DNA of 64,000 nt, from the NCBI GenBank assembly GCA_036444275.1, contig JAZGAD010000010.1, positions 14,271 to 78,270 of the forward strand, read 5' to 3'. Under the pieces are notes generated by a model that saw nothing but the letters and a program-made list of their open reading frames with translations, was not told where the DNA came from and made no database searches. How positions within the stretch are numbered: position 1 is the first letter of the stretch; each line of letters opens with the position of its first letter. Source of the DNA: Candidatus Hydrothermarchaeales archaeon. Its GTDB lineage: Archaea > Hydrothermarchaeota > Hydrothermarchaeia > Hydrothermarchaeales > JAZGAD01. The translations under genes and the position numbers were made by a program. Shown in pieces: positions 29,551-46,958 of the stretch.

Positions 29551-30564
29551 ATGCGCGTATTCTTCCAACTCTCCGGAGAGCATTCAACACTCCCTAAAGC
29601 TGAAGCATTAGCAGTTCTTGAAGCATCTAGTGTGGATTTCAAGGTCTTATTATCTCTGGACCAAGTCCTTGTAGTGGAGGCAGATGCAGGGAATATAGAC
29701 GGAATTCACGAGCGTCTGGCAATGAGCCACGGGATATGCGAGTTCTACGGTGCATGTCGTCCTGCCTTGGAGGAGCTTATAGAGATCGCACGTGGGATAG
29801 ATTTGTCAGGCAGTTTCGCTGTCAGAGTCAAGAGGATAAAAGACTACTTCGGGGAGGTAAGCACCATGGAGTTAGAGAGCGGGATAGGCGGGCTATTGAC
29901 AAAAAAGGGATATAAGGTAGATCTTGAAAACCCTGAGAACATCATCCTCGGCATATTGAGCAGTGAATTCGTCTTGGGCAGGGTACTATACGAGGTGGAC
30001 CGCTCCCAGTATGAGGCTCGTCGGCCCCATAGGCGGCCGTACTTTCGCCCGGGTGTTATGCTTCCGAGGATCTGCCGTGCCATAGTCAATCTAACTAGGG
30101 TCAAGAAGGGGGAGAAGTTCATAGATCCATTCTGCGGTACAGGCGGGTTCCTGATAGAAGCGGACTTGGTAGGTGCGAAGGTCTATGGGTGTGACGTTGA
30201 CAAGGAAGTGCTAGAGGGCTGCAAGGTAAACCTCCAGCACCATGGACTAACGGATTATCACTTGGAGGCAGTGGATGCCAGGGAATTGAAAGAGGTGTAC
30301 CCAGAAGCATTTGATGCGTTAGCTGCCGATCTTCCATACGGCATCTCATCCAGCACGCATGGCTCTAAGCTTGAAGAGCTGTGCAGCCAGTCCATGGAAT
30401 CCTTTTTCGAGATATTAAAGCCAGGGGGGTATGCCTGTGTCGTTGCTCCATCCCAAGTGCCCTTAAAGGATATAGCCGCTGCAGCGGGATTCAACGTCGT
30501 AGAGGAGCACTTGGAGAGGATTCATCGTAGCCTGACGAGGAGAATCTTGGTCCTGCAAAAATGA
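29551..30564 (+). CDS. THUMP-domain tRNA G10 N2-methyltransferase (Trm11-like)
   Basis: THUMP domain plus DPFCGTGG and DLPYG. Confidence 0.85.
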   Translation: MRVFFQLSGEHSTLPKAEALAVLEASSVDFKVLLSLDQVLVVEADAGNIDGIHERLAMSHGICEFYGACRPALEELIEIARGIDLSGSFAVRVKRIKDYFGEVSTMELESGIGGLLTKKGYKVDLENPENIILGILSSEFVLGRVLYEVDRSQYEARRPHRRPYFRPGVMLPRICRAIVNLTRVKKGEKFIDPFCGTGGFLIEADLVGAKVYGCDVDKEVLEGCKVNLQHHGLTDYHLEAVDARELKEVYPEAFDALAADLPYGISSSTHGSKLEELCSQSMESFFEILKPGGYACVVAPSQVPLKDIAAAAGFNVVEEHLERIHRSLTRRILVLQK

Positions 30565-30581
30565 CTACTTTAGCAATTTGA

Positions 30582-31079
30582 TCAAATTAGTGATCCATGT
30601 TTCGCAGCGATCTTTTCAAGGGCATATGCAGCATAGCTCCTGACCTCCAGTGAGGTATCTTTTAAAGCTTGCTGTAAAGGCTTGATAGCCCTCTTATCTC
30701 CGCTCTCGCCTAAGGCGAAGGCAGCATACCTCCGGACGAACTTGGATTTGTCCTTCAGTGCCTGGATAAGGAGGGATGTCCCCCTCGCATCTGCGTAGCG
30801 CAGCTGTAAAGCGATGATCCTCCGAACGTTCCAGTCAGCTTCTTCTTGGAATGCGTTGATGATGGCGTCATATGCCTTTGAATATCCTTTTTCACCCAGC
30901 TCGCCCAGGGCATAGGCAGCACGCCATCTTATCTTTTTGTCTTTATCCCTTACAGCCAGTATTAAGGGATCTATTGCTTCCGGGTCAGCGAGTTCACCCA
31001 GCTCGTATGCAGAGTGCATTCTGACTTCAGGTGACGTGTGCTTCAATTCTTTTATCAATTTTTTCACAGATTTCCTCAT
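30582..31079 (-). CDS. HEAT-repeat (PBS lyase-like) protein
   Basis: Repeated VRxxAAxALG. Confidence 0.85.
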   Translation of the reverse strand: MRKSVKKLIKELKHTSPEVRMHSAYELGELADPEAIDPLILAVRDKDKKIRWRAAYALGELGEKGYSKAYDAIINAFQEEADWNVRRIIALQLRYADARGTSLLIQALKDKSKFVRRYAAFALGESGDKRAIKPLQQALKDTSLEVRSYAAYALEKIAAKHGSLI

Positions 31080-31113
31080 CTTACTCCTTCATATACCTAT
31101 GAAAGACTAATAA

Positions 31114-31752
31114 ATGCTCATGAGCGATGCTGCACTCCTAGATAGGCTGAGAGATGACATTATGAATTTCGATTTCGAAGACATAGAAGAAGCTTGCCTA
31201 CACGCACTTGAAGCTGGAACCCCTATAGCAGAGATCGTGGATGCCATGCAGGAGGGTATGAAGACAGTGGAGATGCGCTACCAGAGGGAGGAGTATTACC
31301 TGCCTGAGCTCGTCATGGCCGGAGAAACAATGAATGAAGCCCTCGCCGTCCTCCGCCCGCATATGGGGAAAGAAGTTCAAAAAGGGATAGTGGTAGTTGG
31401 AACCATAAGAGGAGACCTCCATGATGTGGGAAAGAATCTTCTGGGAAACCTCCTTGAGGGTGCTGGCTTCTCGGTCTATGATCTCGGGGTTGATGTAAAG
31501 GCAGGGGATTTCATACAGGCAGTGAAAGAGAGGCAAGCAGGTGTGATATGCATGTCTGCCCTTATCTCAACTTCATTGAGGGAGATGCCAGCTGTAATTA
31601 AGTGCCTTGAGCAAGAGAGCTTTAAGAGACAGATTAAGGTCCTAGTCGGAGGAGGTGCTGTCAGCAGAGGTTTCGCGGAGAGAATAGGTGCAGATGCCTA
31701 TGCCAGTGACGCTCTAGAAGGCGTGGCGATAGTGAAGAGATGGCTTGCTTAG
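31114..31752 (+). CDS. Methyltransferase-system corrinoid protein
   Basis: GDLHDVGKN (DxHxxG), SAL, GGG, GADAY. Confidence 0.9.
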   Translation: MLMSDAALLDRLRDDIMNFDFEDIEEACLHALEAGTPIAEIVDAMQEGMKTVEMRYQREEYYLPELVMAGETMNEALAVLRPHMGKEVQKGIVVVGTIRGDLHDVGKNLLGNLLEGAGFSVYDLGVDVKAGDFIQAVKERQAGVICMSALISTSLREMPAVIKCLEQESFKRQIKVLVGGGAVSRGFAERIGADAYASDALEGVAIVKRWLA

Positions 31753-32054
31753 AGGTTTTTCATCAATATTCTTATCCTTAAGTGAAATCTGTACCTCCTC
31801 TTTCCATCCTTCATGCCCAAGTATTTCGTGCTCTCTGATATCTTGCCGTTGAGGGATCTCGCAATCCTAGATGCCGTCCTCCTAGCTACGCCCAGGGATG
31901 AAATATACACGTCCAAACCTCTACCAGACCTTGGTTGGAATATCTCCCATTCTACCCCTCCTGTAGCATATCTCTTTGTAATACTACGTACGACCTCGCG
32001 TTGTTCCTCTGTTAGCTCGTGATTAGCCCTGATTTGGATGAGGGCCTCATGCAT
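31749..32054 (-). CDS. NMD3 C-terminal-like small protein
   Basis: EALIQIR, GLDVYISS, KYLGMKDGKRRYR. Confidence 0.6.
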   Translation of the reverse strand: MHEALIQIRANHELTEEQREVVRSITKRYATGGVEWEIFQPRSGRGLDVYISSLGVARRTASRIARSLNGKISESTKYLGMKDGKRRYRFHLRIRILMKNL

Positions 32055-32314
32055 GAATATAATAGTAGAACGACAGCGATAAATAATTGCAGGAGGGGAA
32101 TTCGAAAACAAGTCTCTCTTTTTTAAGTTTCTTTCGGGTTCTGATAAGGGGACTGGGACTAGAAACTTTTTATATTTTCTTCGAGTTTCTGCTGTTTCTT
32201 AAAAATCCATATGAGCTTTTCCCCGTAACTCATGTTGTCCCACTTTTCTGGTTTCTCTATACTTTCCATGTTTTTAGCGGTTTTTCGGCGCCTATATTAT
32301 AGCTTTCCTTCGTC

Positions 32315-32327
32315 TTCTTGAATACCA
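32315..32327 (+). repeat. Left copy of 13-bp direct repeat TTCTTGAATACCA
   Basis: Identical to 44249-44261. Confidence 0.55.
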
Positions 32328-32491
32328 GAAATCGAAACGCCTTAATATAAGAATTATCTCGTATGCTTATCTGGCAGAAGGTGGGCTGGTTATTATCCTA
32401 AGCTGGAGGTTCTAGTGTTAGTGTTAAACCGGCGATGAGTTTTTATTGAAGTGCTCGGATAAATTACGGATAATGGCGGAAATAAATAGGT

Positions 32492-33509
32492 ATGGATACG
32501 GCTGGGAGGATAACCGTCAGCTTCCCATATAATCCTTCCTACATTACAAAGATAAAAAGCATAAAAGGTCACAGGTGGCATCCTGAAGAAAAATACTGGC
32601 GTGTGCCATACTCTGAGCTTGAAAACCTCTTATCTGTCTTTGATGGCGAGAAGGCTGATATCGACTCCGCTCTCTATTTCGAGCCCCTGAGAAAAGAGCT
32701 TGCATCGAGGAAGTACAGCCGGAGAACGATGAAGATGTATCTGCAGTACAATGAGGATTTCTTGAGGTTTGCAAGGAAAACTCCTTACAAGATTTCCAAT
32801 AGCGACGTGAGGGATTATCTGTATCACTTGGCGGAGGAGAGGGATGCATCTGCCTCTACCCTGAATATTGCTATAAATGCGTTGAAGTTCTACTATGGTG
32901 AGATCTTAAAGCGGGGGTTTGCTTATGGGATTAAGAGGCCTAAGAAGGATAAGAAAATGCCCGTTGTATTAAGTCCGGAGGAAGTTTCCAAGATTTTATC
33001 TTCACTTTCAAACATCAAGCATAAAGCCATTCTTATGCTTATGTATTCTGCTGGATTAAGAGTTGGTGAAGTTGTGAAGTTGAGGGTTGAGGATATAGAT
33101 ACTGGAAGAAAGTTAATTCATATCCGTGGTGGGAAAGGAAGGAAAGATCGCTATACTATACTTTCAGATGTTGCATTGGAGACCCTCAAAGTATATATCA
33201 ACGCCTGCAATCCAGAAAATTGGCTTTTTCCTGGGGGGAAAGGATAGAGGGCATGTTACCACAAGAACTGTGCAAAGGATATTTGAAGATGCCGTCAGAG
33301 AGGTCGGTGTTGGCAAAGACGTTAGCGTTCATTCTTTGAGACATAGCTTTGCAACACATCTATTAGAAAGCGGCGTAGATTTGAGGTATATTCAGGAATT
33401 GTTAGGGCACAAAAGCAGTAAAACGACAGAGATATACACTCATGTGAGCAACAAGTCTTGGAGCAGAATAAAAAGCCCTCTGGATCTAATTCAAAGAGGT
33501 GGGACATGA
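32492..33509 (+). pseudogene. Integron-integrase-like tyrosine recombinase split by a 1-nt frameshift
   Basis: SAM-like N-domain, [34 protein letters not shown]; break at the G6 run 33233-33238. Confidence 0.9.
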
Positions 33510-33536
33510 GGGAGTTTGGTAGCATCCGGGATGGGT

Positions 33537-33606
33537 ATATGCGCAATGCAGATATAATTCTAAATAGGGATGATATACGCAATGCGTATATGAACGAGTT
33601 AGGCGA
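33537..33606 (+). other. attI-like site
   Basis: Two related palindromes 36 bp apart followed by GTTAGGC core at 33598-33604. Confidence 0.7.
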
Positions 33607-33654
33607 AATTTTTAAATCGCCTTTATAAGAACTTAAAAAAGGAATGTGAAATAG

Positions 33655-35055
33655 TTGAATATGAAAGCTTTAATACTTGCCGCTGGAGACGGTGGCAGAT
33701 TGGGCAACTTAACTAAAAATAAACCCAAGCCCCTGATTAAACTTTTGGGATTAACTTTGATCGAAAGAGTAATATTAACTGCAAAACAAGCAGGCATTAA
33801 AGAATTCGTGATAGTTTTTGGTTATCTGGGTGACAAAATAAAAGCAAAATTGGGAACTGGAGATAGGTATGGAGTAGAAATAAACTATATCGAAAATAAT
33901 GACTGCCAAAAAGAAAATGGGATCTCTGTATTAAAGGCCAAAGGATTGTTAAATGAAAACTTCATCCTGTTAATGTCAGACCATATCTTTGATAATCGTA
34001 TTCTGAAAGAACTTATCGATTATGATACAAAAAGTTCAGTTGTTTTAGCTATTGATAGAAGAAAATCTCTACCAGGAGACACAAAGGTTCTGGAGAAGGA
34101 AGGAAGAATTGTTGATATCGGTAAAAATATAGAAGAATCAAACTGCATAGATACGGGTATCTTCTTGTGCTCACCAAAAATATTTTCTCATATTGAAGAA
34201 GCAGTAAAAGAAGGTAAAACTGAGCTTGCACATGATATTGCTAAAGCTGTTAAGAACAGAGATGCAGAAATATTCGACATCACGCAAATTAACAGCTATA
34301 TCCCGAGCATGCGGAAGGAGATTAAAGCTTTCTGGATAGATATTGATACAAAGGAGGATTTAATCAAAGCAAAAAAGCTTTTAATTGAGAATGCCTGTAA
34401 AGGACGAAATGACCTGCTTGCAACCTATGTGAATAAGCCAATAGAAAATTTTATTGTAAGCAGATTGGCGAACACGCAGATTACACCAAACCAGGTTACT
34501 ATACTAACAAACATAGTTGCTTATACATCCACATTTTTATTTCTCGAAGGATATCTATTGTTTGCTTCCATTCTCACCTTTATCGTTTCATTTATGGACG
34601 GTGTGGACGGAAAACTTTCAAGAGTGAAAATAGCCTTTTCAAATATTGGGAAAATGGAGTACGCCTTCGATTTTCTTTATGAGCATTCATGGTATATCGC
34701 CTTAGCCATCTATCTATCAAAGGACTATGGACTATCAGCGATTTTACTGTGCACATTCATACTCCTGTTTGATGGTTTTTCTCATTTTTGCAGACAGGCG
34801 TTTGGGAAGGCAATAAAGGACCGCCCATTAACAGATTATGGACGAATTGAACGGCTATTCAGAAAATTTGATGGTAGGAAGAACAGTTATATAATTTTTA
34901 TCTTAATAGGTGTTTTGCTAAATGCACCTTTCTGGTCATTAGTTGCAATATCTGTATGGTCATTGGTCAGTGCTATATTTTATTCTTCAAGGGCGATTTT
35001 GCATTTATATCGAGCCGATAAATCAACTCAGGGACCATATGGGAGCAAAAGATGA
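33655..35055 (+). CDS. Bifunctional inositol-1-phosphate cytidylyltransferase / CDP-alcohol phosphotransferase (IPCT/DIPPS-like)
   Basis: LAAGDGGR..KP NTP-transferase domain fused to a TPNQVT..DGVDGKLSR membrane domain. Confidence 0.85.
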   Translation: MNMKALILAAGDGGRLGNLTKNKPKPLIKLLGLTLIERVILTAKQAGIKEFVIVFGYLGDKIKAKLGTGDRYGVEINYIENNDCQKENGISVLKAKGLLNENFILLMSDHIFDNRILKELIDYDTKSSVVLAIDRRKSLPGDTKVLEKEGRIVDIGKNIEESNCIDTGIFLCSPKIFSHIEEAVKEGKTELAHDIAKAVKNRDAEIFDITQINSYIPSMRKEIKAFWIDIDTKEDLIKAKKLLIENACKGRNDLLATYVNKPIENFIVSRLANTQITPNQVTILTNIVAYTSTFLFLEGYLLFASILTFIVSFMDGVDGKLSRVKIAFSNIGKMEYAFDFLYEHSWYIALAIYLSKDYGLSAILLCTFILLFDGFSHFCRQAFGKAIKDRPLTDYGRIERLFRKFDGRKNSYIIFILIGVLLNAPFWSLVAISVWSLVSAIFYSSRAILHLYRADKSTQGPYGSKR

Positions 35056-35132
35056 AGATAAGAATGATGTGGCTTGGGAAGGTCGTCAACGGACCTTCCA
35101 TCCACCTGAAATTAGTAGGGAGGGCTTGAACA

Positions 35133-36257
35133 ATGAAGATCGCTTACGTATCAACCTATCTCCCCAAACAGTGTGGGATAGCCACCTACACGGATTATCT
35201 CATTCACGGTCTCAGAGAGGTGGATCCGGCATTGGAGATTAAGATCATTGCCGAACAAGGAGCATCTCCTATCAAACAAGATAAACTTGAAGTGATCCCC
35301 TCCTGGGATAGAAACGAGGATTATGTAGAACCTATCATCTCACGCACAAAGGGTGCAGATGTAATCCACATTCAGCACGAATACGGCATATACAAATTTG
35401 ATGATAGATTACCATTATTACTCCAGGGATTGGACCCAGATGCCCGGAAGGTGATAACCATCCATTGCGTGAGACCAGCTCAGTTCTCCGAAAGAGATGC
35501 TGTAGATGAGAATTTTGCAGCAAAAATCGCTCAACTTGCCGATCAGGTCATCGTACACCTTGAGTCGCAAAAAGCAATCCTGACACGACTTGGAATACCA
35601 TCAGGAAAGATTCACATTATTCCCCATGGAACAGTGCTTAGTGATGAGGATAAAGAGGCTTCACGGAAGAGGCTCGGACTGCCCAAGGACGCAAAGATAC
35701 TTCTCATGTTCGGGTTTGTCAAGAAACACAAGTGTTTACACATCGTTCTTGAGGCCCTCGTTGAGATATTGGAGAAATTCAAAGATATATATCTATTTGT
35801 GGCCGGAGGTCTTGCTCCAATAGCCTCACAGAAGGACAGGGACTATGCAGAATATGTGGGCAAGAGGATAGCGGAACTGGGGCTTCAGAAGAACGTCATC
35901 TACCCAAACAGGTTCTTTCCCAACGAAGATGTGCCATATCTGTTGGGGGCATCTGACATTATCCTGTTTCCTTACTATGAGGAGGACCGCTCTGCCTCGG
36001 GCTCATTTCACCTGGCCATTGGTGCGAAAAAACCAGTTATTGCTTCGAGGATACCCAAGTTTGAAGAACTGAGAAATATCTGCGATGAACTTCTTGTCCT
36101 TCCGTATAACTCTTCGGGAATTGCAAAAGTAGTCATTCGTCTTTTTGAAGACTCAAAATTTCGGCAGTATGTAGTCAATCGCACCGAAGAATACAGAAAT
36201 CTTACCTCCTGGCAAACCGTAGCGCACCAACACTTGAAATTGTATAAGGGAGTTTGA
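35133..36257 (+). CDS. GT4-like glycosyltransferase
   Basis: CGIATY, HIQHEYG, FGF..KK, PY...SASG. Confidence 0.85.
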   Translation: MKIAYVSTYLPKQCGIATYTDYLIHGLREVDPALEIKIIAEQGASPIKQDKLEVIPSWDRNEDYVEPIISRTKGADVIHIQHEYGIYKFDDRLPLLLQGLDPDARKVITIHCVRPAQFSERDAVDENFAAKIAQLADQVIVHLESQKAILTRLGIPSGKIHIIPHGTVLSDEDKEASRKRLGLPKDAKILLMFGFVKKHKCLHIVLEALVEILEKFKDIYLFVAGGLAPIASQKDRDYAEYVGKRIAELGLQKNVIYPNRFFPNEDVPYLLGASDIILFPYYEEDRSASGSFHLAIGAKKPVIASRIPKFEELRNICDELLVLPYNSSGIAKVVIRLFEDSKFRQYVVNRTEEYRNLTSWQTVAHQHLKLYKGV

Positions 36258-36258
36258 G

Positions 36259-37299
36259 ATGAAGATAGGAATGATGACCGCTTGGAACCAAGATGTAGGA
36301 CCTTCTATTCATGCCGAGCTGATCGGCAGAGAATGGGTGAAGATGGGTCATGAGCTTAGAATTTTTTCCTTCCTTAAGTCAGATTTTCATGGCACAGCCA
36401 TTGTTGGTCAGGATGAGGAGTATGTGCTCCGATGTTTTACTACATCTACGGCAGAAAGACCATTTTTGGATGCTCGTCCCTTCGTAGAATTCCATCCCGA
36501 TATTTTCATTACCCAAGATCTTGGGACGTTGCCAATGGATGCTCTCGCAAAGATTTTCCACCTTATAAAAAAAGAAGCAAAGACGATAACCGTGATCCAC
36601 GATCGAATGCTTTCATCAAATCCATCTTTTTATCAATTTGAATGGGATGCGATTATTTGTAGCGATAAAAGGTACGTAGAATTTCTTAAAGAGGCTTATC
36701 CAGAGGAAAAAATCTATGTAATACCCCATCCATACAATAAGTGGAGAGCCGGGGATAAGATTCGGGCAAGAAAGAAATTAGATCTGCCACTCGATAAGAA
36801 GATTATCCTGAACTTTGGTCAAAGAGTAAAGGATTTCAAAGAAACACTTCCTGCGATTTCCGAACTTCAGTCCAACTATCCGATTCTTGTTTTGGTAGTT
36901 ACCAGAGAAGAAATAGAAGAACTCAGAAGAGAAACAACTTTACCAATTGAGATAAGGGAAGAGAGCCCATGTATAGAAAGGGTTTATGAGTATTTACACG
37001 CATCAGATGCCATGGTACTTCACCGTAAATCTATTGAGGGGATTGTCTATTCAAGCACCACTTATCAGTGCTTAGGATCAGGTTGTTCCGTCGTTGCGCT
37101 AAACTCAAACTTCTTCCAGCCATTTGGTGTGGAAGTCTTAAAATATGATGACTTAGCGGGCTTAAAGGAGTGCCTAATCGATATATTTAAAGAAGGAAAA
37201 AGATATAAAACAGCAAAATTATTAGCGGAAAGGGTGGTAAAAAGAAATACTCCACAAGAGATAGCAACTAAATTCATTAAACTTTTTGAATCGCTGTGA
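36259..37299 (+). CDS. GT-B glycosyltransferase (paralogue of 38056-39099)
   Basis: MKIGMMTAWN..HAE..W.KMGH N-terminus shared with the paralogue. Confidence 0.7.
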   Translation: MKIGMMTAWNQDVGPSIHAELIGREWVKMGHELRIFSFLKSDFHGTAIVGQDEEYVLRCFTTSTAERPFLDARPFVEFHPDIFITQDLGTLPMDALAKIFHLIKKEAKTITVIHDRMLSSNPSFYQFEWDAIICSDKRYVEFLKEAYPEEKIYVIPHPYNKWRAGDKIRARKKLDLPLDKKIILNFGQRVKDFKETLPAISELQSNYPILVLVVTREEIEELRRETTLPIEIREESPCIERVYEYLHASDAMVLHRKSIEGIVYSSTTYQCLGSGCSVVALNSNFFQPFGVEVLKYDDLAGLKECLIDIFKEGKRYKTAKLLAERVVKRNTPQEIATKFIKLFESL

Positions 37300-37307
37300 T
37301 GGGTAAA

Positions 37308-37424
37308 ATGAAATCTAAAACTTTTGTTGGTAGAGAGAATAAATTAAAGCTACTGGAACACTATTTTGAAGAAACCATCAAAAACAAAAAAAGGCATTGT
37401 TATTTTGCTTACATGAGGAAATAG
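37308..37424 (+). pseudogene. Archaeal ATPase N-terminal fragment
   Basis: MKSKTFVGRENKLKLL.. (FVGRE motif) then truncated. Confidence 0.4.
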
Positions 37425-37427
37425 GTA

Positions 37428-37772
37428 TTGGCAAACAGACGCTTAACACCCTGGGGCAGCTGGCAGGTTCTTGCTGAAGGCCGAGAATATAAGGTAAAAC
37501 TGATTAAAGTGAAGCCAGGGCACCGCTTTAGCCTCCAGTTGCATAATCGTAGAGATGAGCACTGGATGGTTGTTTCAGGTCAAGCAAGAGTAGAGATTGG
37601 AGACAAAACAGTTAAAGCTAAACCCGGAAAATACATATTCATTCCTAAAAAGACGAAGCACCGGCTGCAAAATCCGGGAAAGAGTCGTCTCGTGGTAATT
37701 GAGGTTCAAAGGGGTAAATATCTAGAAGAGGACGATATTGTTCGCCAAGAAGATAATTATGGAAGGTCATGA
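37428..37772 (+). CDS. Type II mannose-6-phosphate isomerase cupin domain
   Basis: PWGSW, SLQLH..RDEHW, HRLQN, EVQRG.YLEEDDIVR. Confidence 0.9.
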   Translation: MANRRLTPWGSWQVLAEGREYKVKLIKVKPGHRFSLQLHNRRDEHWMVVSGQARVEIGDKTVKAKPGKYIFIPKKTKHRLQNPGKSRLVVIEVQRGKYLEEDDIVRQEDNYGRS

Positions 37773-38032
37773 AACTTAATTCAGAGATTTTTAGAGAGCA
37801 CGATATAAGGGGAGTGGTTGATAAGGACTTGGATCCGGAGGTGGTGGAAGAAATTGGTAGGGCCTTTGGGGCTTATATTGGGAAGGGTAAGGTGGCGGTA
37901 GGACAGAGGGGATATTGAGATAATGAGCAAAGATTTAAAACTTAGCAACTAGAGTTAGAAGAGATTAATGATATCTTCATCGAAAGGCTTAAGAAGTATC
38001 CTCAAATGGACATTAAGCCGTTTAGAGGATAA
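37769..38032 (+). pseudogene. Phosphomannomutase/phosphoglucomutase remnant (internal deletion)
   Basis: MKLNSEIFREHDIRGVVDKDL..IGRAFG..VAVG then stop at 37918; a possible C-terminal remnant follows. Confidence 0.75.
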
Positions 38033-38055
38033 TTATTTTGGAAGGAGGCTAGAGG

Positions 38056-39099
38056 ATGAGAATTGCTATGATGAGTGCTTGGAACACAGATAGTGGAGTA
38101 GCTGTACATGCAGAACCATTGGGCAAAGCCTGGATAAAGATGGGACATAAGTTAACTGTATTTACTTTCATCAAGGATGACTTCCATGGGGAGGGGTTTA
38201 CCGGCGAAGATGAGGAGTATGTAGTCAGATGTTTTGGCACTCAAGAGCATACCAACTTCTTAGACCCCCGGCCTATCCTCACCACGGACTTTGATATCTT
38301 CGTAGTTCAGGATTTAAGGATACTTCCAGTAGAAAAATTAGCCAAAGTATTTAGCCTGATTAAACAGCGGGCCATGACAATACATATAGTTCATGAAAAT
38401 AAATTACCTGATGATGCCTGGTTTTATCAATTTGACTGGGACAAGGTAGTCTATTTTGATCAGAGGCAGGAATTCCTAAAAGAGATATACCCTGACGCTA
38501 AACTTATCCCTTTTCCTTGTTATGAACTAAGAAGGCGTGATAAGCTTGAGGCAAAAAAGAGGTTAGAGCTCCCCCTGGATAAGAAAATCATCTACTCTTT
38601 TGGCCAACGCGGCTATCATTCCTATCTTCGAAACTTACCTGATGAGATTAAAGATAAGGCAGTGCTTCTACATGTTGTCTCCAAAGAATACCAGATGCTT
38701 GAAGAGGAATCTCCTCCCGATTGGATGATTATTAGAAGAGAGGATGTTTTATCCCGCGAGAAATTTAATGACTATCTCTTTGCCTCGGATGCGGCTATTT
38801 TTCATAAGTTCCAGAGCCGTTATCATGCCGTTGTTTCCTCTACGGTCTTTCAGGCATTAGGTTGTGGTTGCCCAATCTTAGTTCCCCGGCAATCGGATTT
38901 CTTTCATCCTATGCAGAATGAGGTCATACGTTATGGAGATACTCCCGACTTAAATAGGAAGCTGCTTGAATTATTTGGAGATGAACAGACATCTCAAACA
39001 GTCCAAGACGCAGCAGAAGGGTTTGTGTCAATGAATTCACCAGAAAAAATTGCCAAAAGGTATATCGGGCTATTTACTGAGGTCTTAAGAGCAAGATAA
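38056..39099 (+). CDS. GT-B glycosyltransferase (paralogue of 36259-37299)
   Basis: MRIAMMSAWNTDSG..HAE; VSST.FQALG.GCP. Confidence 0.7.
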   Translation: MRIAMMSAWNTDSGVAVHAEPLGKAWIKMGHKLTVFTFIKDDFHGEGFTGEDEEYVVRCFGTQEHTNFLDPRPILTTDFDIFVVQDLRILPVEKLAKVFSLIKQRAMTIHIVHENKLPDDAWFYQFDWDKVVYFDQRQEFLKEIYPDAKLIPFPCYELRRRDKLEAKKRLELPLDKKIIYSFGQRGYHSYLRNLPDEIKDKAVLLHVVSKEYQMLEEESPPDWMIIRREDVLSREKFNDYLFASDAAIFHKFQSRYHAVVSSTVFQALGCGCPILVPRQSDFFHPMQNEVIRYGDTPDLNRKLLELFGDEQTSQTVQDAAEGFVSMNSPEKIAKRYIGLFTEVLRAR

Positions 39100-39134
39100 G
39101 ATGTGCAAGAAAAATTTTATCATCGAGCCATTTT

Positions 39135-39407
39135 GTGGATTATCCAAACAACCCAATTTTAGCTCCGGCAAAAGGTTTCACCTCACAAGGAATATATAAC
39201 CCTACAGTGATTAAAGAAGGAAAAAAATTCTTTATGCTATTCAGGGCTGAGGCAGAAGATGAGTTGACGGGAAGGATAGGGCTTGCTAAAAGTAGTGATG
39301 GCATCCAATTTAGCTTGCACCCCGAACCAGTAATAGTGCCTTCTGCGGATTTCGATAAGTTCGGCTGTGAAGACCCCCGGGTGGTGAGATTTAAAGATAC
39401 TAAGTAA
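39135..39407 (+). pseudogene. Truncated GH130-like glycosidase/phosphorylase
   Basis: NPIL..YNP..RIGLA.S.DG..GCEDPRV then stop. Confidence 0.75.
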
Positions 39408-39410
39408 AAT

Positions 39411-39661
39411 GTGGGAAGAATCAAGATTGCTATTATAGGAGTAGGCAACTGCGCCAGTTCTCTGGTGCAAGGTTTATGGTTCTATAAAGATTCATCAGAA
39501 GAAAAAGTTATCGGCTTAATGCACTACGATGTTGGTGGGTACAAGGTATGGGATTTGAGGTAGCGGCTGCCTTTGATATCGATAAGCGAAAGGTTGGCAA
39601 GCCCTTGAATGAGGCGATATTTGCCAGGCCGAACTGCAGGAGAATTTATAAAATTATTTAA
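39411..39661 (+). pseudogene. ino1: Inositol-3-phosphate synthase fragment, frameshifted
   Basis: [18 protein letters not shown]..., frameshift near 39553, then [25 protein letters not shown]. Confidence 0.85.
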
Positions 39662-39685
39662 CAAGTTGTTATAAGGGGTAATGTA

Positions 39686-40855
39686 ATGAACACTTTGGAA
39701 GAATTAGGAGATGGCAAGGTTATCGAAATCGAATCAGGAGCGACCATTTTTAAACTGGAGTCCGATGAAAAAAACCCTATTGTCAGACCCCAAGACCTCG
39801 GGCTCACCTGGAATGAGAATGGCGAATCGAAGATTGGGGCAGTTTTCAACGGTGGGGCTGAATTTTTCGAGAATAAGGTTATTCTTTTGCCAAGGTGTCA
39901 TAGAGATTACCGAAAGGGCGAATTCTTTGACGAAAAGTTAGGCATTGAGAGGACCTGCCTGGAAAACTACATTTCCGAGGTTTGGCCTTTGGTGAGCGAG
40001 GATGGCGTCCACTTCACCAGATTCCATAACGTGGTAATCCGGGGCGATGGCACCGACCATCAGGACTTTACCTACGGAATAGAGGACATCCGAATCGTTA
40101 AGTACGGCCGGAGATACCTGCTGATCGGGTGTGGGAAGATAAAACCTCCGTTTAAAGGCGGCAATGCGGATCGAATTGCCATTTACACAACCAAAGATTT
40201 TGTGAAGATTAACTATCAGGGCATAGTGGACTCCTTTGACTCGCGCAATGCGGTTCCCTTCTCCGAGCCGGTAAATGGACAACACTGGATACTCCTGCGT
40301 TTTCATACTAATATTCACATAGATTTTCTTGAAGCCGGCATAAATCAATTGCTGAATCCTTCCCAGCACACAGAACAGTGGGATGAAATCTATGAGCGAC
40401 AGAGCCAGAATCTCCTTTTAGAAGCTGGGCACTACCCGCACGAAAAGCAGAAAATCGGCCCGGGCCCCCAGGTGCTCAGAACCGATAGGGGTTGGTTGCT
40501 CATCTACCATGCTGTTGGTGAGATAGAATATAATATCTGCAAAGCCTACGGGTTGACGGAAAAAATTGAAAGAGGATACTCCATCTGCGCTGCCCTTTTG
40601 GACTTAGACGATCCACGAAAGGTGCTTTGTCGAACCAGAAATCCAATCTATATTCCTTCAACCCCTTACGAATTATATGGTAACGATCAATATCCAGTGG
40701 ATGTGTCTGCAGTCGTTTTTCCCATGGGTGCTATTGTTCGAAAAGAAAAACTGATTCTCTATGCCGGAGCTGGCGATAAATACATCATCCTTTTGAGCTG
40801 CGATCTTGATAACTTAGTTAATTATTTATGGGAGTATTGCAAGTACATTGCATAG
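39686..40855 (+). CDS. GH130-like glycosidase/mannoside phosphorylase
   Basis: AVFNGGA, GIEDIRI, KIGPG, WLLIYH, VVFP.G, YAGAGD. Confidence 0.8.
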   Translation: MNTLEELGDGKVIEIESGATIFKLESDEKNPIVRPQDLGLTWNENGESKIGAVFNGGAEFFENKVILLPRCHRDYRKGEFFDEKLGIERTCLENYISEVWPLVSEDGVHFTRFHNVVIRGDGTDHQDFTYGIEDIRIVKYGRRYLLIGCGKIKPPFKGGNADRIAIYTTKDFVKINYQGIVDSFDSRNAVPFSEPVNGQHWILLRFHTNIHIDFLEAGINQLLNPSQHTEQWDEIYERQSQNLLLEAGHYPHEKQKIGPGPQVLRTDRGWLLIYHAVGEIEYNICKAYGLTEKIERGYSICAALLDLDDPRKVLCRTRNPIYIPSTPYELYGNDQYPVDVSAVVFPMGAIVRKEKLILYAGAGDKYIILLSCDLDNLVNYLWEYCKYIA

Positions 40856-40879
40856 GAACTACCATTGACTTGGCACATC

Positions 40880-40949
40880 GCCTAACAACGGCTAAAAGGC
40901 TCCGCCCAAATTTGCTCCGCTAACTTCTTTTATCCGCAATACGTTAGGT
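40880..40949 (+). repeat. attC-like site 1
   Basis: GCCTAAC-A-ACGGCTAAAAG ... ACTT-CTTTTATCCGC-AATAC-GTTAGGT. Confidence 0.8.
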
Positions 40950-40997
40950 GAAATGCCTAAGCCCGCTTTGATGGTAAAATTAAAATAAGAATATGTC

Positions 40998-41318
40998 ATG
41001 GGTGACTGTATGAAAGGCAAAAACACTCTTACAGAAATAATGGACATCTTTAAAAAATATGAAAAGGAACTGAACAGAAGGTACGGGATCAAAAAGATTG
41101 GGATATTTGGCTCGTACCTAAGAAGCGAAGCTGGAGAGGAGAGCGATCTAGATATACTTGTAGAATTTGAACAAGACGTAGATATAGGGCTTTTAAAATT
41201 TGTAGAGATAGAGAACTATCTGAGTGACCTTCTTGGTGTTAAAGTGGATTTGGTGGAAAAATCTGCATTAAAACCGAGGATAGGACGGCGTATATTGAAA
41301 GAGGTTGTTTACGCATGA
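40998..41318 (+). CDS. MntA-like nucleotidyltransferase antitoxin (cassette 2)
   Basis: [16 protein letters not shown] (GSX10DXD). Confidence 0.9.
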
Positions 41319-41659
41319 AGAGAGAGGTTGGAGACTATATTCAAGATGTCATCGACGCTACGAATAAAGGCATGAGATTTGTTGAGGGTGTGGAATATGA
41401 AGATTTCATTCATGATGATAAAACCGTATTTGCTGTGATAAGAGCTATAGAGGTTATTGGTGAAGCAGTCAAAAATATACCTGAAGATGTAAAAATGGAG
41501 TATCCCGAAATTCCCTGGAGAGATATTGCCGGAATGAGAGATAAGCTTATTCATGCTTATTTTGGAGTTAGCATCAAAAGAGTATGGAAAGCTATAAAAG
41601 AAGAAATTCCTCCATTAAAACCTGTATTTGAAAAAATGCTTAAGGACTTAGAAAAATGA
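41315..41659 (+). CDS. HepT/DUF86 toxin (cassette 2)
   Basis: [16 protein letters not shown] (RX4HXY); ATGA coupling to the antitoxin. Confidence 0.9.
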
Positions 41660-41735
41660 GGTCTATAATATTCGGTAGGCTTGGGTACTCTGCGGATTTG
41701 CATTGCAAATCCTTGCCCTCGCTATCGCTCGGGTC

Positions 41736-41886
41736 GCCTAACAGGCGGGTATGCGGTTCGAAATGATGAAAAGTGGTCTCACCCAGATTCCTTTGACAAC
41801 GGTTATATTCAGCTTTCACATTGCTCTCACCTGATGAAATCGGGATGCTCGCAGTCGGCACTTCGCATACCCGCGAAACGTTAGAC
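41736..41886 (+). repeat. attC-like site 2
   Basis: GCCTAAC-AG-GCGGGTATGCG ... ACTT-CGCATACCCGC-GAAAC-GTTAGAC; perfect 11-bp arms. Confidence 0.85.
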
Positions 41887-41930
41887 GCAATAAATTTCAA
41901 TAGTTTGATTTTATATGGAGATATACAATC

Positions 41931-42365
41931 ATGAAAAAGTTTCGAGATGTCGATGAGATAAAAGTAAAATTAGAAGAAGTGAATGCCTTATTTGAAAAAG
42001 GTGATCTTGCATGTTTTTTGTATCTATCAAGTTATATTGAAGATCGCCTGAAACGTAATCTAATGGTTCATTGTTTGTCAGAAGACAGATATTCTAAAGA
42101 GATTGAACATTATATTTTCAACTTAAATCTCTATAATTTAATTGAAATATCCAACTTATTCGGATTAATTACTAAAGAAACTTATACGGATTTGGAAATT
42201 TATAGAAAGTTTAGAAATGAATTGTTTCATGATGCAATTTTCAATGAAGCAATTGATAGAGAGTATGAGAAATATTATTCATTAGGTTGTAAAATAATAT
42301 GTGAACTTCATGACACGGGTGTCGAAATATGCGACGCAATAACCAAAAAAGTAGACATTTCCTAA
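41931..42365 (+). CDS. Putative HEPN-domain protein (cassette 3)
   Basis: Helical protein with IE..L and RNELFH (RX4H) motif; GGAG RBS; AT-rich. Confidence 0.65.
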   Translation: MKKFRDVDEIKVKLEEVNALFEKGDLACFLYLSSYIEDRLKRNLMVHCLSEDRYSKEIEHYIFNLNLYNLIEISNLFGLITKETYTDLEIYRKFRNELFHDAIFNEAIDREYEKYYSLGCKIICELHDTGVEICDAITKKVDIS

Positions 42366-42375
42366 AATTTACATC

Positions 42376-42459
42376 GCCTAACAGAGCGTATCTGGTTCGC
42401 TATCGCTCACCTAAATCTCTCCCGTTGCCTGAACTTCAGATACGCTCGGAACGTTATAT
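42376..42459 (+). repeat. attC-like site 3
   Basis: GCCTAAC-A-GAGCGTATCTG ... ACTT-CAGATACGCTC-GGAAC-GTTATAT; perfect 11-bp arms. Confidence 0.85.
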
Positions 42460-42515
42460 GCAATTTCAAAGAAGTTACTATTCCCCAATTTGAGTTATTA
42501 AAGGAGGTCTAACTT

Positions 42516-43427
42516 ATGTCAATGAAGTCTAAAAGAAAAGACCCCACACCTAAACAGAAAGAAAAATTGCTCTCTATGAATGCGGGAGTTTGCTGTGTAT
42601 GCAAAACAAGAGGGCAAGGTGTTAATTTTCATCATATTGACGGTGACAATACCAACACTGTCATTGAAAACTTAGCTGTTCTTTGCATCAAGGATCATGA
42701 TGCATATCATAGACCTCAGGTTTATACAGAGATGAAACATTTAGAGCTTGGAGCTGAAAAGATATTAAAATGCAAGCTTGAATGGGAATCATTTATAAAA
42801 GCAGCACAAAAAGAAAGTCCCAAAGTGCTAGCTGTAATAAATATTTACGGGACTGAAGAAAGCATACATTCTATGAGATTAATTTTCCAGACAATTGAAT
42901 CAAAAATAATTTTTGAACGACTATATCATCTACTTACAGGATCACCTAAAAGTTGGATAGATTCTGCAATTGATGAAGTTCGCTGGCTTGGATCAAATAT
43001 TCCACTTTCAATAGTAGATAAACCACTTCCAATTGAATATTGCCCTTGCTGTGATAAATCTTTAGCGAATGTAATTGATAGTAATGTTGCAAAGAGGATA
43101 ACGGCAAGCAATTGGGAACAAAATTCTATCTGTTCTATTTATATCAATCCTTCACAACCTTCTTTGGCAATTATACTATTGTATGAAAAAGAAGTTCTTC
43201 TTACCGGATCACTTCATAAATGTGGTGAATGCCTACATTTCATTTGTGATAATTTCGAGGAAAGAGTTCCAATTAAAAAATCGCCCAGCGTGAGAACTCA
43301 GGCAACTAGAATTTTATCTAAAGTTTTAAGTGAGTGGCACCCAGCCCAAATACTTATTGGAACAGGAGATGAAGATAATCCTGAGATCATTGACAATTTG
43401 AACCTATCACGAATATGGGAGAATTAA
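42516..43427 (+). CDS. HNH endonuclease-domain protein with unknown C-terminal region (cassette 4)
   Basis: CCVC..HHIDG..N....NLAVLC..DH..H; AGGAGG RBS. Confidence 0.75.
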   Translation: MSMKSKRKDPTPKQKEKLLSMNAGVCCVCKTRGQGVNFHHIDGDNTNTVIENLAVLCIKDHDAYHRPQVYTEMKHLELGAEKILKCKLEWESFIKAAQKESPKVLAVINIYGTEESIHSMRLIFQTIESKIIFERLYHLLTGSPKSWIDSAIDEVRWLGSNIPLSIVDKPLPIEYCPCCDKSLANVIDSNVAKRITASNWEQNSICSIYINPSQPSLAIILLYEKEVLLTGSLHKCGECLHFICDNFEERVPIKKSPSVRTQATRILSKVLSEWHPAQILIGTGDEDNPEIIDNLNLSRIWEN

Positions 43428-43465
43428 GATTATTACTCAAATAACTCAAATTATGATGAAACGGC

Positions 43466-43528
43466 GTATAACAGAGCATACCTGGCTTCGTGCCTTCGGC
43501 GGACTTCAGATACACGCAACCGTTAAGT
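43466..43528 (+). repeat. attC-like site 4 (degenerate arms)
   Basis: GTATAAC-A-GAGCATACCTG ... ACTT-CAGATACACGC-AACC-GTTAAGT. Confidence 0.75.
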
Positions 43529-43569
43529 GAAAAAGCCCAAAGTTTATTGAATTAAAATGAGGCAAATCC

Positions 43570-44094
43570 GTGAAAGATAATAAACTTCAACAGCTCAAAG
43601 TTGTAATCTCCCTTCTTGAGAAGTATAATAAAATCGAAGAAAAATTAAAAGAGCTCAAAATCGTTCGAACGAGAAAGGTTATCTCAGAAGTTGGCGAGTG
43701 GTATGTCTCTATTCTTTTTAATTGTAAAATAAATACTAACCCGTCTGAAAAAGGATTCGATTGTATTGACCCTGAGACTGGGAAGAAGATTGAAATAAAG
43801 ACTATCAGAAAATCAGAAAGTAATCCTATTGGCTATAGGTTATCTAAGGATAAAGTCGAGCGGCAAATTTTTGATGAACTTATTATTTTGAGGTTGGGAG
43901 ATAATTTTCGGATAAGACAATTGTTTAAGTTGGATAGAGATGATATTTCGGAGGAGAATTTTTCCCTTCTTAGCAGTGCGAAATATAATTTGAGTTGGAA
44001 TTCCTTAAAAAAGGGAAACTTCGAAGTTACTCATGAAAATGCTTTACAAAGAGGGTTAGATGATATAGAAGTATTTAGAATGCTAATGGAATAA
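43570..44094 (+). CDS. PD-(D/E)XK nuclease-like protein (cassette 5)
   Basis: SEVGE..KGFDC...IEIK motif. Confidence 0.7.
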   Translation: MKDNKLQQLKVVISLLEKYNKIEEKLKELKIVRTRKVISEVGEWYVSILFNCKINTNPSEKGFDCIDPETGKKIEIKTIRKSESNPIGYRLSKDKVERQIFDELIILRLGDNFRIRQLFKLDRDDISEENFSLLSSAKYNLSWNSLKKGNFEVTHENALQRGLDDIEVFRMLME

Positions 44095-44107
44095 TATGGG
44101 CTTCTTC

Positions 44108-44183
44108 GCCTAACAGTGTGTTTGCGAAGTGCCGAAGGCATTTGGGTGAGCATGATGCACCGCAAACACACGAACCATTACGC
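44108..44183 (+). repeat. attC-like site 5 (core GTT changed to ATT)
   Basis: GCCTAAC-A-GTGTGTTTGCG ... CGCAAACACAC-GAACC-ATTACGC; perfect 11-bp arms. Confidence 0.8.
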
Positions 44184-44248
44184 GACATTGCGAAATATAA
44201 GAATTTGCGTCTTTTAGATATTCAAAATGGAAATTTCAGGCGCAGTTA

Positions 44249-44261
44249 TTCTTGAATACCA
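44249..44261 (+). repeat. Right copy of 13-bp direct repeat TTCTTGAATACCA
   Basis: Identical to 32315-32327. Confidence 0.55.
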
Positions 44262-44337
44262 AAAGTGACCTAGTGAATTTCCTAAATACTTAAATACAAT
44301 CCATAATCCCTTTTTATTATCTGAATGGGGACGAAGT

Positions 44338-45048
44338 ATGAGAAAGATACTCCCACTAGCTGTCATCCTTATCTTGATCCTAGCGGTCGGCTACTTTTAC
44401 TTGTCTCAGAGACCGAGAGAAGAACTCGTAGGCTCCGAGGCAATAGGAGAAAACGCCCGAATTCTCACCATTAAGACCGAAGTCAAGGGCGTAGAGCACA
44501 CGAGGCATGACATAGAGTACACCAGAGAAGAACGGACTTTCAGGAACTATTTCGACTCCAAACTGAGGCCTGCATTGGCCTGGATAAAAGGAAACGCACC
44601 TGAAGATGCTGTCTTCCTCTGTTGGTGGGACTATGGGCATATGATACGTGGCTATACCGAGAGAGACGCAGTGGTATATAGTCCTTCTAAGGGCATAATG
44701 GAGACTGTATCCAGCGGCAAGTGGGACACCTCCGCTAGTGGAGACTTCTCTACAGAGGAAAGGATAAGAGAAGTAGCTCTAGCCCTAACAGCAAGAGATC
44801 CAAAAGAAACTCTTGATATAATGAAAAAATACAGAGCTAACTATGTCTTTATAACCGCAGAGGATTCTGCGAAGAGCTTTGCCATCTTCTCTAGCTTGGG
44901 CTACGACCCCTCTGAGTATCTAGTGGATTGGAAGCCTACAGAGAAAGCCATGGAAACTATGCTCTTCAAGATGCTCGGGCACGAGCGGGTAGAGGGCTTG
45001 AACCTGCTGTATTCAGATGAATTCGTGAAAATCTATGGGCTAGAATGA
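44338..45048 (+). CDS. Stand-alone STT3/AglB C-terminal-domain protein
   Basis: One N-terminal TM helix; ALAWIK.N..VFLCWWDYGHMI motif; YRANYVFI. Confidence 0.75.
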   Translation: MRKILPLAVILILILAVGYFYLSQRPREELVGSEAIGENARILTIKTEVKGVEHTRHDIEYTREERTFRNYFDSKLRPALAWIKGNAPEDAVFLCWWDYGHMIRGYTERDAVVYSPSKGIMETVSSGKWDTSASGDFSTEERIREVALALTARDPKETLDIMKKYRANYVFITAEDSAKSFAIFSSLGYDPSEYLVDWKPTEKAMETMLFKMLGHERVEGLNLLYSDEFVKIYGLE

Positions 45049-45450
45049 AAGGGCCTACTACTATTTCTGGCTTTGGAACTTACCTCGAAGTCTGCTGCAA
45101 TCTTTTCCTCAAAGGCCTTTCTATCGCTCCTAGCAGTAACTCCTTCCGTCTCTAAGAGCCCATACATTCTCTACAGAGAGACCCCGCATTATGGTATAGC
45201 CCTTCGTTGCTCCAGAAGGCTGCATCCTGATGTCTAAACAGGAAGTGTCGATATCGCCACTCACATCTAGTTTCTCAAGGCTCGCAGGAAGGCGGGTTAG
45301 AGTCTCTCTTCTTGTGCTTTTGGTGGGATGATCGAAAATCTCGAGCTCGGTTTTTGTGCGGGAAACCTAATATGTTAGAATAACTATTACAGTTCTCATG
45401 ATCATGCAATATGTACGTGTACGGGAAAATAAAAACGTTGGTGTGTTGCG

Positions 45451-46248
45451 ATGCGGTTAGCATCGATTGTCATGATAGCCCTTCTCAGATACGAGACAAC
45501 GAAAAGGTGCATAGAGAGCATTTTTGAGAGAACCATGGCGCCCTTTGAGCTGATAGTCGTCGCTGTGGACTGTGAGAAGAAGATGAGAGAATTTTTTGAG
45601 GACCTTCAGAGGAAAAAGAAGAACCTAAAGGTCATCCATATAAAAAGCGGTCTGGGAACAACCGGCTCCAGAAATGTCGGCATACGAGCCTGTTCTGGGG
45701 ATTATATAGTGTTTATGGACAACGATGCTCTTGTGAGCGAGGGATGGTTGGGAAAGTTGGAGAGGGTGGCTGAAAGCTCTCCGGATATCGGCCTTGTGGG
45801 CCCTAAAATCCTCAGGAAGAGCGGTGAGATTTATTATTGCAGCAAGTATATGAACGCGAAAGTGGAAGGGGGAAAAGTGGTGGAGATGGGCCTCAGCAAG
45901 ACAGAAGTCTATAGCGGTGATGACCCCGAGGTCAACAGACAGGAGGAGGTGGTGTGGTATCCCACCACAACCCTGCTCGTAAAAAGGGAGGTGATAGAAA
46001 AAGTTGGGGGTTTTGATGAAGCATTTTTTCTTGTGGATGAGGACAAGGACCTCTGTCTGAGCGCGAGAGAAGCTGGCTACAAAACAATATATGCGCCATA
46101 TGCAGAAGTTGTTCACCTTCACGACTATCGTCTGGTGGATAGGCACAACACCTACCACAAGAACTTCAGGCTCAGGATGGACCTGATAGAAAAGGACAAC
46201 AAAAATTTTGAGAAGAAGTGGGGCCTGAGACTTGTTGACATATGGTAG
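45451..46248 (+). CDS. GT2-family glycosyltransferase
   Basis: RNVG, FMDND, GGFDE, EDKDLC, H motif. Confidence 0.9.
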   Translation: MRLASIVMIALLRYETTKRCIESIFERTMAPFELIVVAVDCEKKMREFFEDLQRKKKNLKVIHIKSGLGTTGSRNVGIRACSGDYIVFMDNDALVSEGWLGKLERVAESSPDIGLVGPKILRKSGEIYYCSKYMNAKVEGGKVVEMGLSKTEVYSGDDPEVNRQEEVVWYPTTTLLVKREVIEKVGGFDEAFFLVDEDKDLCLSAREAGYKTIYAPYAEVVHLHDYRLVDRHNTYHKNFRLRMDLIEKDNKNFEKKWGLRLVDIW

Positions 46249-46910: not shown

Positions 46911-46958
46911 CTTTCTAGACTATGGTACTAATTTTATATAAAAATGAATTGAAAAGAT

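Follow-up and report, generated by a model that had tools for sequence, protein, structure and literature searches.

Integron integrases (IntI) are defined, and found by software, by means of a single insertion, the I2 domain, which accommodates the extrahelical bases of folded attC sites and which, in the available text of Escudero et al. (2016, PMC4792948), 'has not been identified elsewhere'. Archaeal IntIs defined by this IntI-specific domain number six in the available part of the report by Ghaly et al. (2022, PMC9668308), where most archaeal arrays are without an integrase, and the available text of Cury et al. (2016, PMC4889954) reports no complete integrons in Firmicutes. In rAID-1 of Bacteroidales, as described in the available text of Ross et al. 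(2019, bioRxiv 10.1101/471110), a 5′ XerD-like recombinase, with more than 44% identity to B. fragilis BF9343_RS08045 as the criterion, is followed by co-directional low-G+C genes; the intergenic repeats are 'reminiscent of integrons' and a motif lies right past the recombinase stop codon. Here we describe a locus in a 64,000-nucleotide (nt) stretch of a Candidatus Hydrothermarchaeales archaeon genome (GenBank assembly GCA_036444275.1, contig JAZGAD010000010.1, positions 14,271 to 78,270 of the forward strand; this whole stretch is referred to as the window), in which a frameshifted tyrosine recombinase gene without I2 is followed by an array of attC-like hairpins. We read this gene as the probable, now broken, integrase gene of an integron-like gene-capture platform that lacks I2.

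The recombinase gene heads an array of attC-like sites

One tyrosine recombinase gene, split by a single frameshift, spans 32492-33509 on the plus strand of the window, and extends beyond position 33300, where a first-pass annotation made by a model from the sequence alone had ended it. The gene and its parts are listed below.

32492 to 33509, plus strand: tyrosine recombinase gene, 338 amino acids (aa) by way of one frameshift (Pfam, NCBIfam)
32504 to 32677, plus strand: predicted N-terminal HARP domain, residues ~5-62 (alignment, Pfam, profile, model)
32681 to 32914, plus strand: core-binding (SAM-like) domain, residues 64-141 (Pfam PF13495)
32966 to 33452, plus strand: catalytic domain, residues 159-320, without an IntI insertion between residues ~240 and 251
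33233 to 33238, plus strand: run of G with one surplus base, the frameshift (sequence; 96%-identical contig)

Five elements with GCCTAAC-type and GTTAGGY-type cores trail successive genes in the window. A covariance model (R1) was trained on four of these window sites together with four sites from other loci, and scored the five as follows.

40876 to 40955, plus strand: attC-like site 1 (R1 78.8 bits)
41732 to 41892, plus strand: attC-like site 2, after the MntA/HepT pair (R1 39.9 bits; Pfam)
42372 to 42465, plus strand: attC-like site 3 (R1 71.2 bits)
43462 to 43534, plus strand: attC-like site 4 (R1 58.1 bits)
44104 to 44189, plus strand: attC-like site 5, with a degenerate right core, at the array end (R1 58.4 bits; sequence)

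Related genes were found in 578 stretches among genome contigs, and the locus counts given here refer to the 80 loci kept from these. In the window and the 80 loci, R1 gave 78 matches at E<=1, all of which were on the strand of the recombinase. At E<=1e-3, 51 matches (47 without the training sites) were located in the 296,594 nt downstream of the gene, versus 1 match in the 486,130 nt upstream, and a site was present in 20 of the 39 loci having at least 1,500 nt of downstream sequence. The complete chromosome of Desulfitobacterium sp. Sab5 (locus L042) carries 13 sites inside 10 kb. All 12 R1 matches obtained with further copies of the gene were likewise downstream and on the gene's strand; seven of these are independent, coming from four loci new to the count (the G004 orthologue, G035, G357 and G359), and five repeat L031/L018. 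Just two weak R1 matches were seen near eight canonical intI genes (160 kb). The contig ended less than 500 nt 3′ of the gene in 31 of the 80 loci (L015-L094) and less than 500 nt 5′ of it in 10, a bias that fits repeated sites downstream; assemblies tend to break at the start of the array. The lone upstream site of R1 type (L025, 9666-9753; Atribacteria) is on the gene's strand ~250 nt before its start, and may be the end of another array.

When 62 sites were aligned, each of the 11 base pairs in the long stem varied on both sides, and pairing was kept in 87.8% of cells compared with 64.7% after shuffling and 27-39% after sliding, in an alignment that had been fitted to R1. In 56 of the 62 sites the two boxes are separated by a 5′ spacer of 1 nt and a 3′ spacer of 5 nt, and at most 2 of the 62 have bases inserted in the stem; the sites are therefore marked by a fixed 4-nt bulge, not by single extrahelical bases. 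Other search methods recovered little: no Rfam family matched at E<=1 within 30000-47000, a generic repeat finder missed the attC-like sites, and a strict expression for core plus stem found just two of the five window sites and nothing useful near canonical intI genes, a control that says little about classical attC geometry.

An attI-like site adjoins the stop codon

In most of 46 loci inspected by eye, the ~100 nt past the recombinase stop codon contain two to four palindrome-like boxes followed by a core ending in GTTA, the outer bases of the boxes varying with lineage. The corresponding features of the window, and the unit that follows them, are listed below.

33534 to 33592, plus strand: two palindrome-like boxes (33534-33558 and 33572-33592), part of the attI-like site, directly past the stop codon
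33592 to 33609, plus strand: attI-like core, with GTTAGGC at 33598-33604 (sequence; related loci)
33599 to 40943, plus strand: first cassette-like unit, an inositol-phosphate/glycosyl gene island of low G+C with no internal R1 site (Pfam)

The TTAGGCG of the attI-like core, taken as its reverse complement, is identical at 7/7 positions to the left core of attC-like site 1, and the cores of successive sites match at 6/7, 6/7, 6/7 and 5/7 positions, sites 3 and 4 sharing a deviation (by eye). Matching junction cores of this kind are what cassette-wise exchange between the G and the TTA of the core would leave. The first unit is 7.3 kb long and holds five to six genes, and its ends match 7/7 like those of a cassette; it is either one giant cassette or several that fused after loss of internal sites. 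The second unit (40998-41659) encodes a nucleotidyltransferase (MntA-type) and HepT-like RNase pair, as identified by Pfam. Toxin-antitoxin cargo of the MntA/HepT kind is common in sedentary integrons.

The IntI insertion is absent from a recombinase with a complete active site

Pfam assigned residues 159-320 of the window protein to Phage_integrase (2.5e-46) and residues 64-141 to Phage_int_SAM_4 (1.8e-18). R190, K215/K218, H280-x-x-R283, H306 and Y315 are in place and align with those of XerA and IntI, in agreement with the complete catalytic set (R, K, HxxR, H, Y) read in the first-pass annotation. Its further statement that there is no room for the IntI insertion was borne out by three comparisons. 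The integron integrase model TIGR02249 scored 244 bits, under its cut-off of 265, and matched in two pieces with model positions ~180-230 skipped. Alignment to VchIntIA (2a3v) likewise split in two, query residues 228 to 252 facing IntI residues 173 to 239, while P. abyssi XerA (4a8e), the best PDB sequence match, aligned in one continuous stretch. In a 70-row MAFFT alignment, ~41 extra residues were present at the insertion point in all four IntIs displayed (of 13), including those with Chlorobi and Nitrospirae hosts, and were absent from the family, XerA and XerC/D rows. The window protein thus lacks the IntI-specific additional domain (I2, ~35 residues near patch III) by which an IntI is recognised; an attI-like site and an attC-like array do adjoin its gene, but in a non-classical orientation and with non-classical site geometry.

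The recombinase belongs to a clade found in archaea and bacteria

The search scored more than 8000 relatives, of which the best 120 are 49-100% identical to the window protein (49-77% excluding the window's own open reading frame (ORF)) and are named from Euryarchaeota, Thermoplasmatota, Thermodesulfobacteriota, Dehalococcoidia and others, thus from both archaea and bacteria; a frequent NCBI name among relatives is 'site-specific tyrosine recombinase/integron integrase'. The kept loci come from Altiarchaeota, Micrarchaeota, Undinarchaeota, Nitrospirota, Spirochaetota, Atribacterota, Bacillota, Bacteroidota and more. In one Spirochaetota genome (G357; L031 and L212-L214) the family gene occurs in four or more copies, and two of these have identical scores.

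A phylogeny (LG+C20+F+G4) was built from 70 hand-picked rows and 276 columns, for which the columns of the N-terminal domain were cut, those of the insertion dropped, and rows with partial matches left out beforehand. The 36 family rows form one clade (support 99/97), as do the 13 IntI rows (100/99), and the 18 XerA rows are grouped with support of 63/52. By its sequence the window protein groups inside neither IntI nor XerA, so that the comparison with IntI, XerA and XerC/D proposed in the first-pass annotation, in which a grouping with housekeeping XerA would have spoken against its reading, placed the protein in a clade of its own. The sister group in the tree may be either XerA or IntI. 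Over the two core domains, identity between the family and XerA is 35-46%. As judged from these searches and the domain counts given below, the clade is large and extends through archaea and many phyla of bacteria; its members usually have a single N-terminal HARP domain, and some lineages have three or four.

The N-terminal domain resembles HARP

The HARP domain of SMARCAL1 is a structure-specific binder of forked or junction DNA. Residues ~5-62 of the window protein have no counterpart in XerA or IntI, and the first-pass annotation had likened this part to a small HARP/DUF5710-like fold, a proposal that held in sequence searches and in structure prediction. When 63 of the family's domains were scanned singly, Pfam HARP (PF07443) matched 34 at E<=1 (best E 3e-6) and DUF5710 matched 9, every other Pfam family matching at most 3. 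The window's own domain scored 17.6 bits against Pfam HARP when scanned alone (E 0.0027) and 13.2 bits in the whole protein, both below the gathering threshold of 25. Among 177,635 PDB sequences, the best match of a profile built from the 63 domains was the HARP domain of SMARCAL1, 4o66 (E=1.1e-4). An AlphaFold model of the window domain (mean predicted local distance difference test (pLDDT) 79.4) has the order strand-helix-strand-strand-helix-strand, and Foldseek ranked 4o66 first (probability 0.99, template modelling (TM) score 0.63, root mean square deviation 1.9 A over 42 columns), with an E-value of 0.16 that is not significant, the domain being very short. When a homologue with 77% identity was modelled at full length (pLDDT 81.5), the same N-domain preceded the usual two domains, and the model matched 2a3v (4e-17, best) and XerA structures (~1e-15) about equally. 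The profile and model evidence supports identification of the predicted N-terminal domain as a true HARP domain.

By a hidden Markov model, the domain is present in 66 of 75 rows of the family and absent from all 53 IntI, XerA and XerC/D rows. Among the nine family rows without it, about six look truly HARP-less and the others are split or cut ORFs. When the 63-domain profile was searched against 1.84 billion representatives, 5847 proteins matched at E<=1e-3 and 32 at E<=1e-30, the strongest matches holding two to four tandem HARP-like copies. Ten of the profile matches were scanned with Pfam and comprise five multi-copy recombinases (608-789 aa), three SNF2 helicases and two proteins without a Pfam match; the SNF2 proteins P0147 and P0229, both found by the domain profile, pass the Pfam HARP threshold. 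The recombinases of 608-789 aa (P0129, P0131, P0136, P0141 and P0145) have three or four tandem HARP-like copies before the usual two domains, and family members from Bacteroidota are mostly ~545 aa. P0123 and P0124 (238 and 318 aa), small proteins without a Pfam match, are the strongest profile matches and have three HARP-profile stretches each.

The window copy is frameshifted

The recombinase is divided between ORF A (32492-33247, 251 aa) and ORF B (33126-33509), which overlap in two frames of the plus strand. The break consists of one surplus base within the run 33230-33243, which includes six G at 33233-33238, and a four-letter step (GGGG) at this run yields the 338-aa read-through protein (P0003). 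The 19-residue stretch across the junction, given in the first-pass annotation after frame repair, was recovered inside this protein. A 526-nt contig from a hot-spring metagenome is ~96% identical over 32883-33409 and has one base fewer at 33233, so that a close relative is in frame; it is a single contig with a depth of 3.4, and runs X1 and X3 cover only parts of the stretch. Homologues among the matches listed are 300-498 aa long, all but five of them 319-385 aa and thus of whole-gene size, and most related loci yielded full-length open recombinase frames.

A programmed frameshift was considered and rejected, given the whole-gene size of the homologues, not to be expected of a split gene, the open frames in relatives and the 96%-identical contig without the extra base. 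The whole-length homologues and this contig therefore point to a recent mutation or an assembly error, and, on its sequence, the window copy is a broken (or mis-assembled) recombinase.

The gene lies at the edge of a low-G+C stretch in a genome with no other Xer-like gene found

The genome of the window is an 81%-complete draft in 61 contigs, in which the family gene is present as a single copy and is the sole Xer-like gene found. A multi-copy insertion sequence (IS)-like element, a candidate prompted by the many short contigs, was rejected for this genome, as one copy is present. Among 30 genomes of the same order, one holds an intact close homologue (G004, 67% identity) and four hold fragments, some with stop codons. 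XerA over the NF040815 cut-off was found in 2 of the 38 genomes of the phylum, of which 21 are at least 90% complete and 23 have no XerA match at 1e-30; the phylum may resolve chromosome dimers by another route. Elsewhere, the archaeal genome G294 encodes a 283-aa XerA plus a separate family member, and a true XerD was found elsewhere in the genome of all five bacterial hosts tested.

The family gene opens a ~12-kb stretch with a G+C content of 0.34-0.42, the flanks being at 0.45-0.51. A 120-aa ORF just upstream of the recombinase (31749-32111, minus strand) matches only the C-terminal part of NMD3 (136-243 of 243). Its missing 5′ part would fall at the start of the low-G+C stretch, and the platform may have cut the gene.

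Proposed mechanism and alternative explanations

The recombinase gene is followed within ~100 nt of its stop codon by an attI-like site and then by co-directional cassettes, each ending in a folded attC-like hairpin. This anatomy is observed here, as are the family, the identity of the HARP domain, its occurrence together with arrays and the covariation of the hairpins. We infer that the recombinase catalyses exchange at both kinds of site and acts on single-stranded DNA: strands would be exchanged between the G and the TTA conserved in the attI-like core and the hairpin sites, a constant 4-nt asymmetric bulge would take the place of the single extrahelical bases read by I2, and HARP would help to recognise or hold the folded, branched substrate. 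Recognition of the folded or branched site is the role that we favour for HARP, as a tentative prediction. Handling of single-stranded DNA or hairpins, the role suggested for the domain in the first-pass annotation, is plausible.

Several observations weigh against the reading of the gene as the integrase of such a platform. No R1 site was found at E<=1e-3 in 19 of the 39 loci with at least 1,500 nt of downstream sequence; these loci are mostly from Bacteroidota, in which R1 may be insensitive. The pair counts come from an alignment fitted to the model. The archaeal XerA model NF040815 scores the window protein at 243.7 bits, over its cut-off of 220, and in the phylogeny the grouping of the family with XerA is supported at 66/51, while a grouping with IntI is not rejected (approximately unbiased test, p-AU 0.455). 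The ~6 HARP-less members still have boxes, and one of these members, L058, also has weak sites, so that the architecture does not strictly depend on HARP. At 7.3 kb, the first 'cassette' far exceeds ordinary cassette length. Recombination by family members is predicted from sequence, and the platform in the window may be inert, its copy of the gene being frameshifted. Finally, the available text of Cury et al. (2016, PMC4889954) describes 50 recombinases near attC without the IntI domain that were judged 'not IntI', four of which were called 'intermediate between IntI and Xer'.

One alternative leaves the integron-like reading otherwise unchanged and concerns HARP alone, which would be an arm-type accessory domain binding the palindromic boxes of the attI-like site and not the hairpins. 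There is precedent in lambda Int, whose N-domain binds arm sites; the boxes recur between stop codon and core in most of the loci inspected, with outer bases that depend on lineage, and the three or four HARP copies of some members would suit repeated DNA sites. However, the HARP-less clade of L045, L050 and L058 still has boxes, the HARP domain of SMARCAL1 is, to our knowledge, not a sequence reader, and its solved structure (4o66) is titled as a structure-specific HARP 'substrate recognition domain'. We regard box binding as a rather unlikely role for the domain.

It is improbable that the recombinase is a bystander or decayed relative, with a canonical IntI moving the cassettes in trans and the arrays being ordinary clusters of attC sites lacking an integrase (CALINs). 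The window copy is frameshifted, a canonical IntI over the TIGR02249 cut-off was found in 2 of 10 host genomes, and Cury et al. (2016, PMC4889954), in the text available, concluded in favour of a bystander role. However, the other eight hosts are without a canonical IntI, the gene and its sites are strictly co-oriented on a single strand (51 downstream, 1 upstream), the conserved attI-like site abuts the stop codon, and R1 sites are nearly absent near the eight canonical intI genes. The site geometry also lacks the single extrahelical bases that, in the available text of Escudero et al. (2016, PMC4792948), I2 reads.

Lying at the left edge of the ~12-kb low-G+C stretch, the gene could instead serve a conventional integrative island (32-44 kb of the window) as its integrase; the island would move in one piece, and the hairpins would be unrelated intergenic elements. 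Such an island is very improbable: the only tRNA is at 15866 and none was found flanking the stretch, no direct repeat flanking the island was present among the 20 largest repeat families shown, gene and sites are found together in unrelated genomes whose cargo differs, and the junction cores of successive sites match as cassette-by-cassette exchange predicts.

That the protein is the housekeeping XerA of the host archaeon, resolving chromosome dimers at dif, is hardly credible, since its NF040815 score over the cut-off, its standing as the sole Xer-like gene of the 81%-complete genome and its best PDB match to P. abyssi XerA are set against a low-G+C island location, an intact gene in just 1 of 30 genomes of the order, XerA over the cut-off in just 2 of 38 genomes of the phylum, a clade apart from the 18 XerA rows, the presence of both proteins in G294, and a HARP extension found in 0 of 30 XerA rows.

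The hairpin-bounded cassette arrays described here are headed, in a fixed position, by a monophyletic, cross-domain family that has no I2. If its recombinases are active, gene capture by way of folded DNA does not need I2, many 'orphan' archaeal arrays gain a candidate integrase, and the fusion of HARP to a recombinase offers a direct test of how site-specific recombination can draw on structure-specific DNA binding. A broader proposal, which we advance with reserve, treats the family as a second lineage of integron integrases that is independent of I2. HARP would take over the reading of folded single-stranded sites with a fixed 4-nt bulge, and such platforms would account for many of the arrays scored at present as 'clusters of attC sites lacking an integrase' among archaea, Bacillota, Bacteroidota and other phyla. 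Should this be true, IntI-based searches would greatly understate how widespread integrons are, and the ancestral form could be the one without I2.

Comparison with known systems

A literature search limited to main texts returned no account of an I2-less, HARP-bearing, array-linked family of recombinases, and among the papers available none paired 'HARP domain' with 'integrase'. The nearest printed description is that of rAID-1 (Ross et al. 2019, 10.1101/471110), which has the same architecture, the likeness being one of described layout. As in the available definition of rAID-1, the window has at least two co-directional low-G+C genes downstream of the recombinase and repetitive intergenic sequences. 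The available text of that description makes no mention of hairpins, attC, an N-terminal domain or archaea; the cargo of the window is a toxin-antitoxin pair plus unknown genes, in which the type VI secretion system (T6SS) immunity genes of rAID-1 were not recognised. Among the best 120 relatives of a Bacteroidales member, none carried a Bacteroides name.

The family resembles IntI (VchIntIA, 2a3v, the best structural match of the full-length homologue model) in being a tyrosine recombinase of the Xer-like branch, in having an attI-like site adjoining an array of promoterless-looking cassettes that end in folded imperfect palindromes, and in cores of the RYYYAAC and GTTRRRY types with stems whose letters vary while pairing is kept. 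It differs in lacking I2, in scoring below the TIGR02249 cut-off, in forming a separate clade and in carrying an N-terminal HARP domain. The family gene is co-oriented with the cassettes and has its attI-like site past its stop codon, and its sites combine a perfect long stem with an asymmetric loop of fixed size (1 x 5 nt), whereas classical attC sites have single extrahelical bases.

Archaeal XerA (4a8e, T. acidophilum 5hxy, NF040815) is similar in its core identity of 35-46%, in the absence of the insertion and in a model score above the cut-off. Unlike XerA, which is a two-domain protein of ~270-300 aa with no N-terminal extension, the window protein has HARP at residues 5-62, a feature of none of the 30 XerA rows. 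A housekeeping XerA would be expected to be conserved in the lineage; an intact close homologue of the window gene is present in 1 of 30 relatives, and XerA is over the cut-off in 2 of 38 genomes of the phylum. The family forms its own clade, is patchily distributed on low-G+C islands, and is linked to arrays rather than to a dif context, although no search aimed at dif was made in the 61-contig draft.

The N-terminal domain is matched to SMARCAL1-type HARP (PF07443, 4o66) by both sequence profile and predicted fold, and the same profile also finds bacterial HARP-SNF2 helicases. The difference is one of partner, the predicted HARP domain being fused here to a site-specific recombinase and not to a motor.

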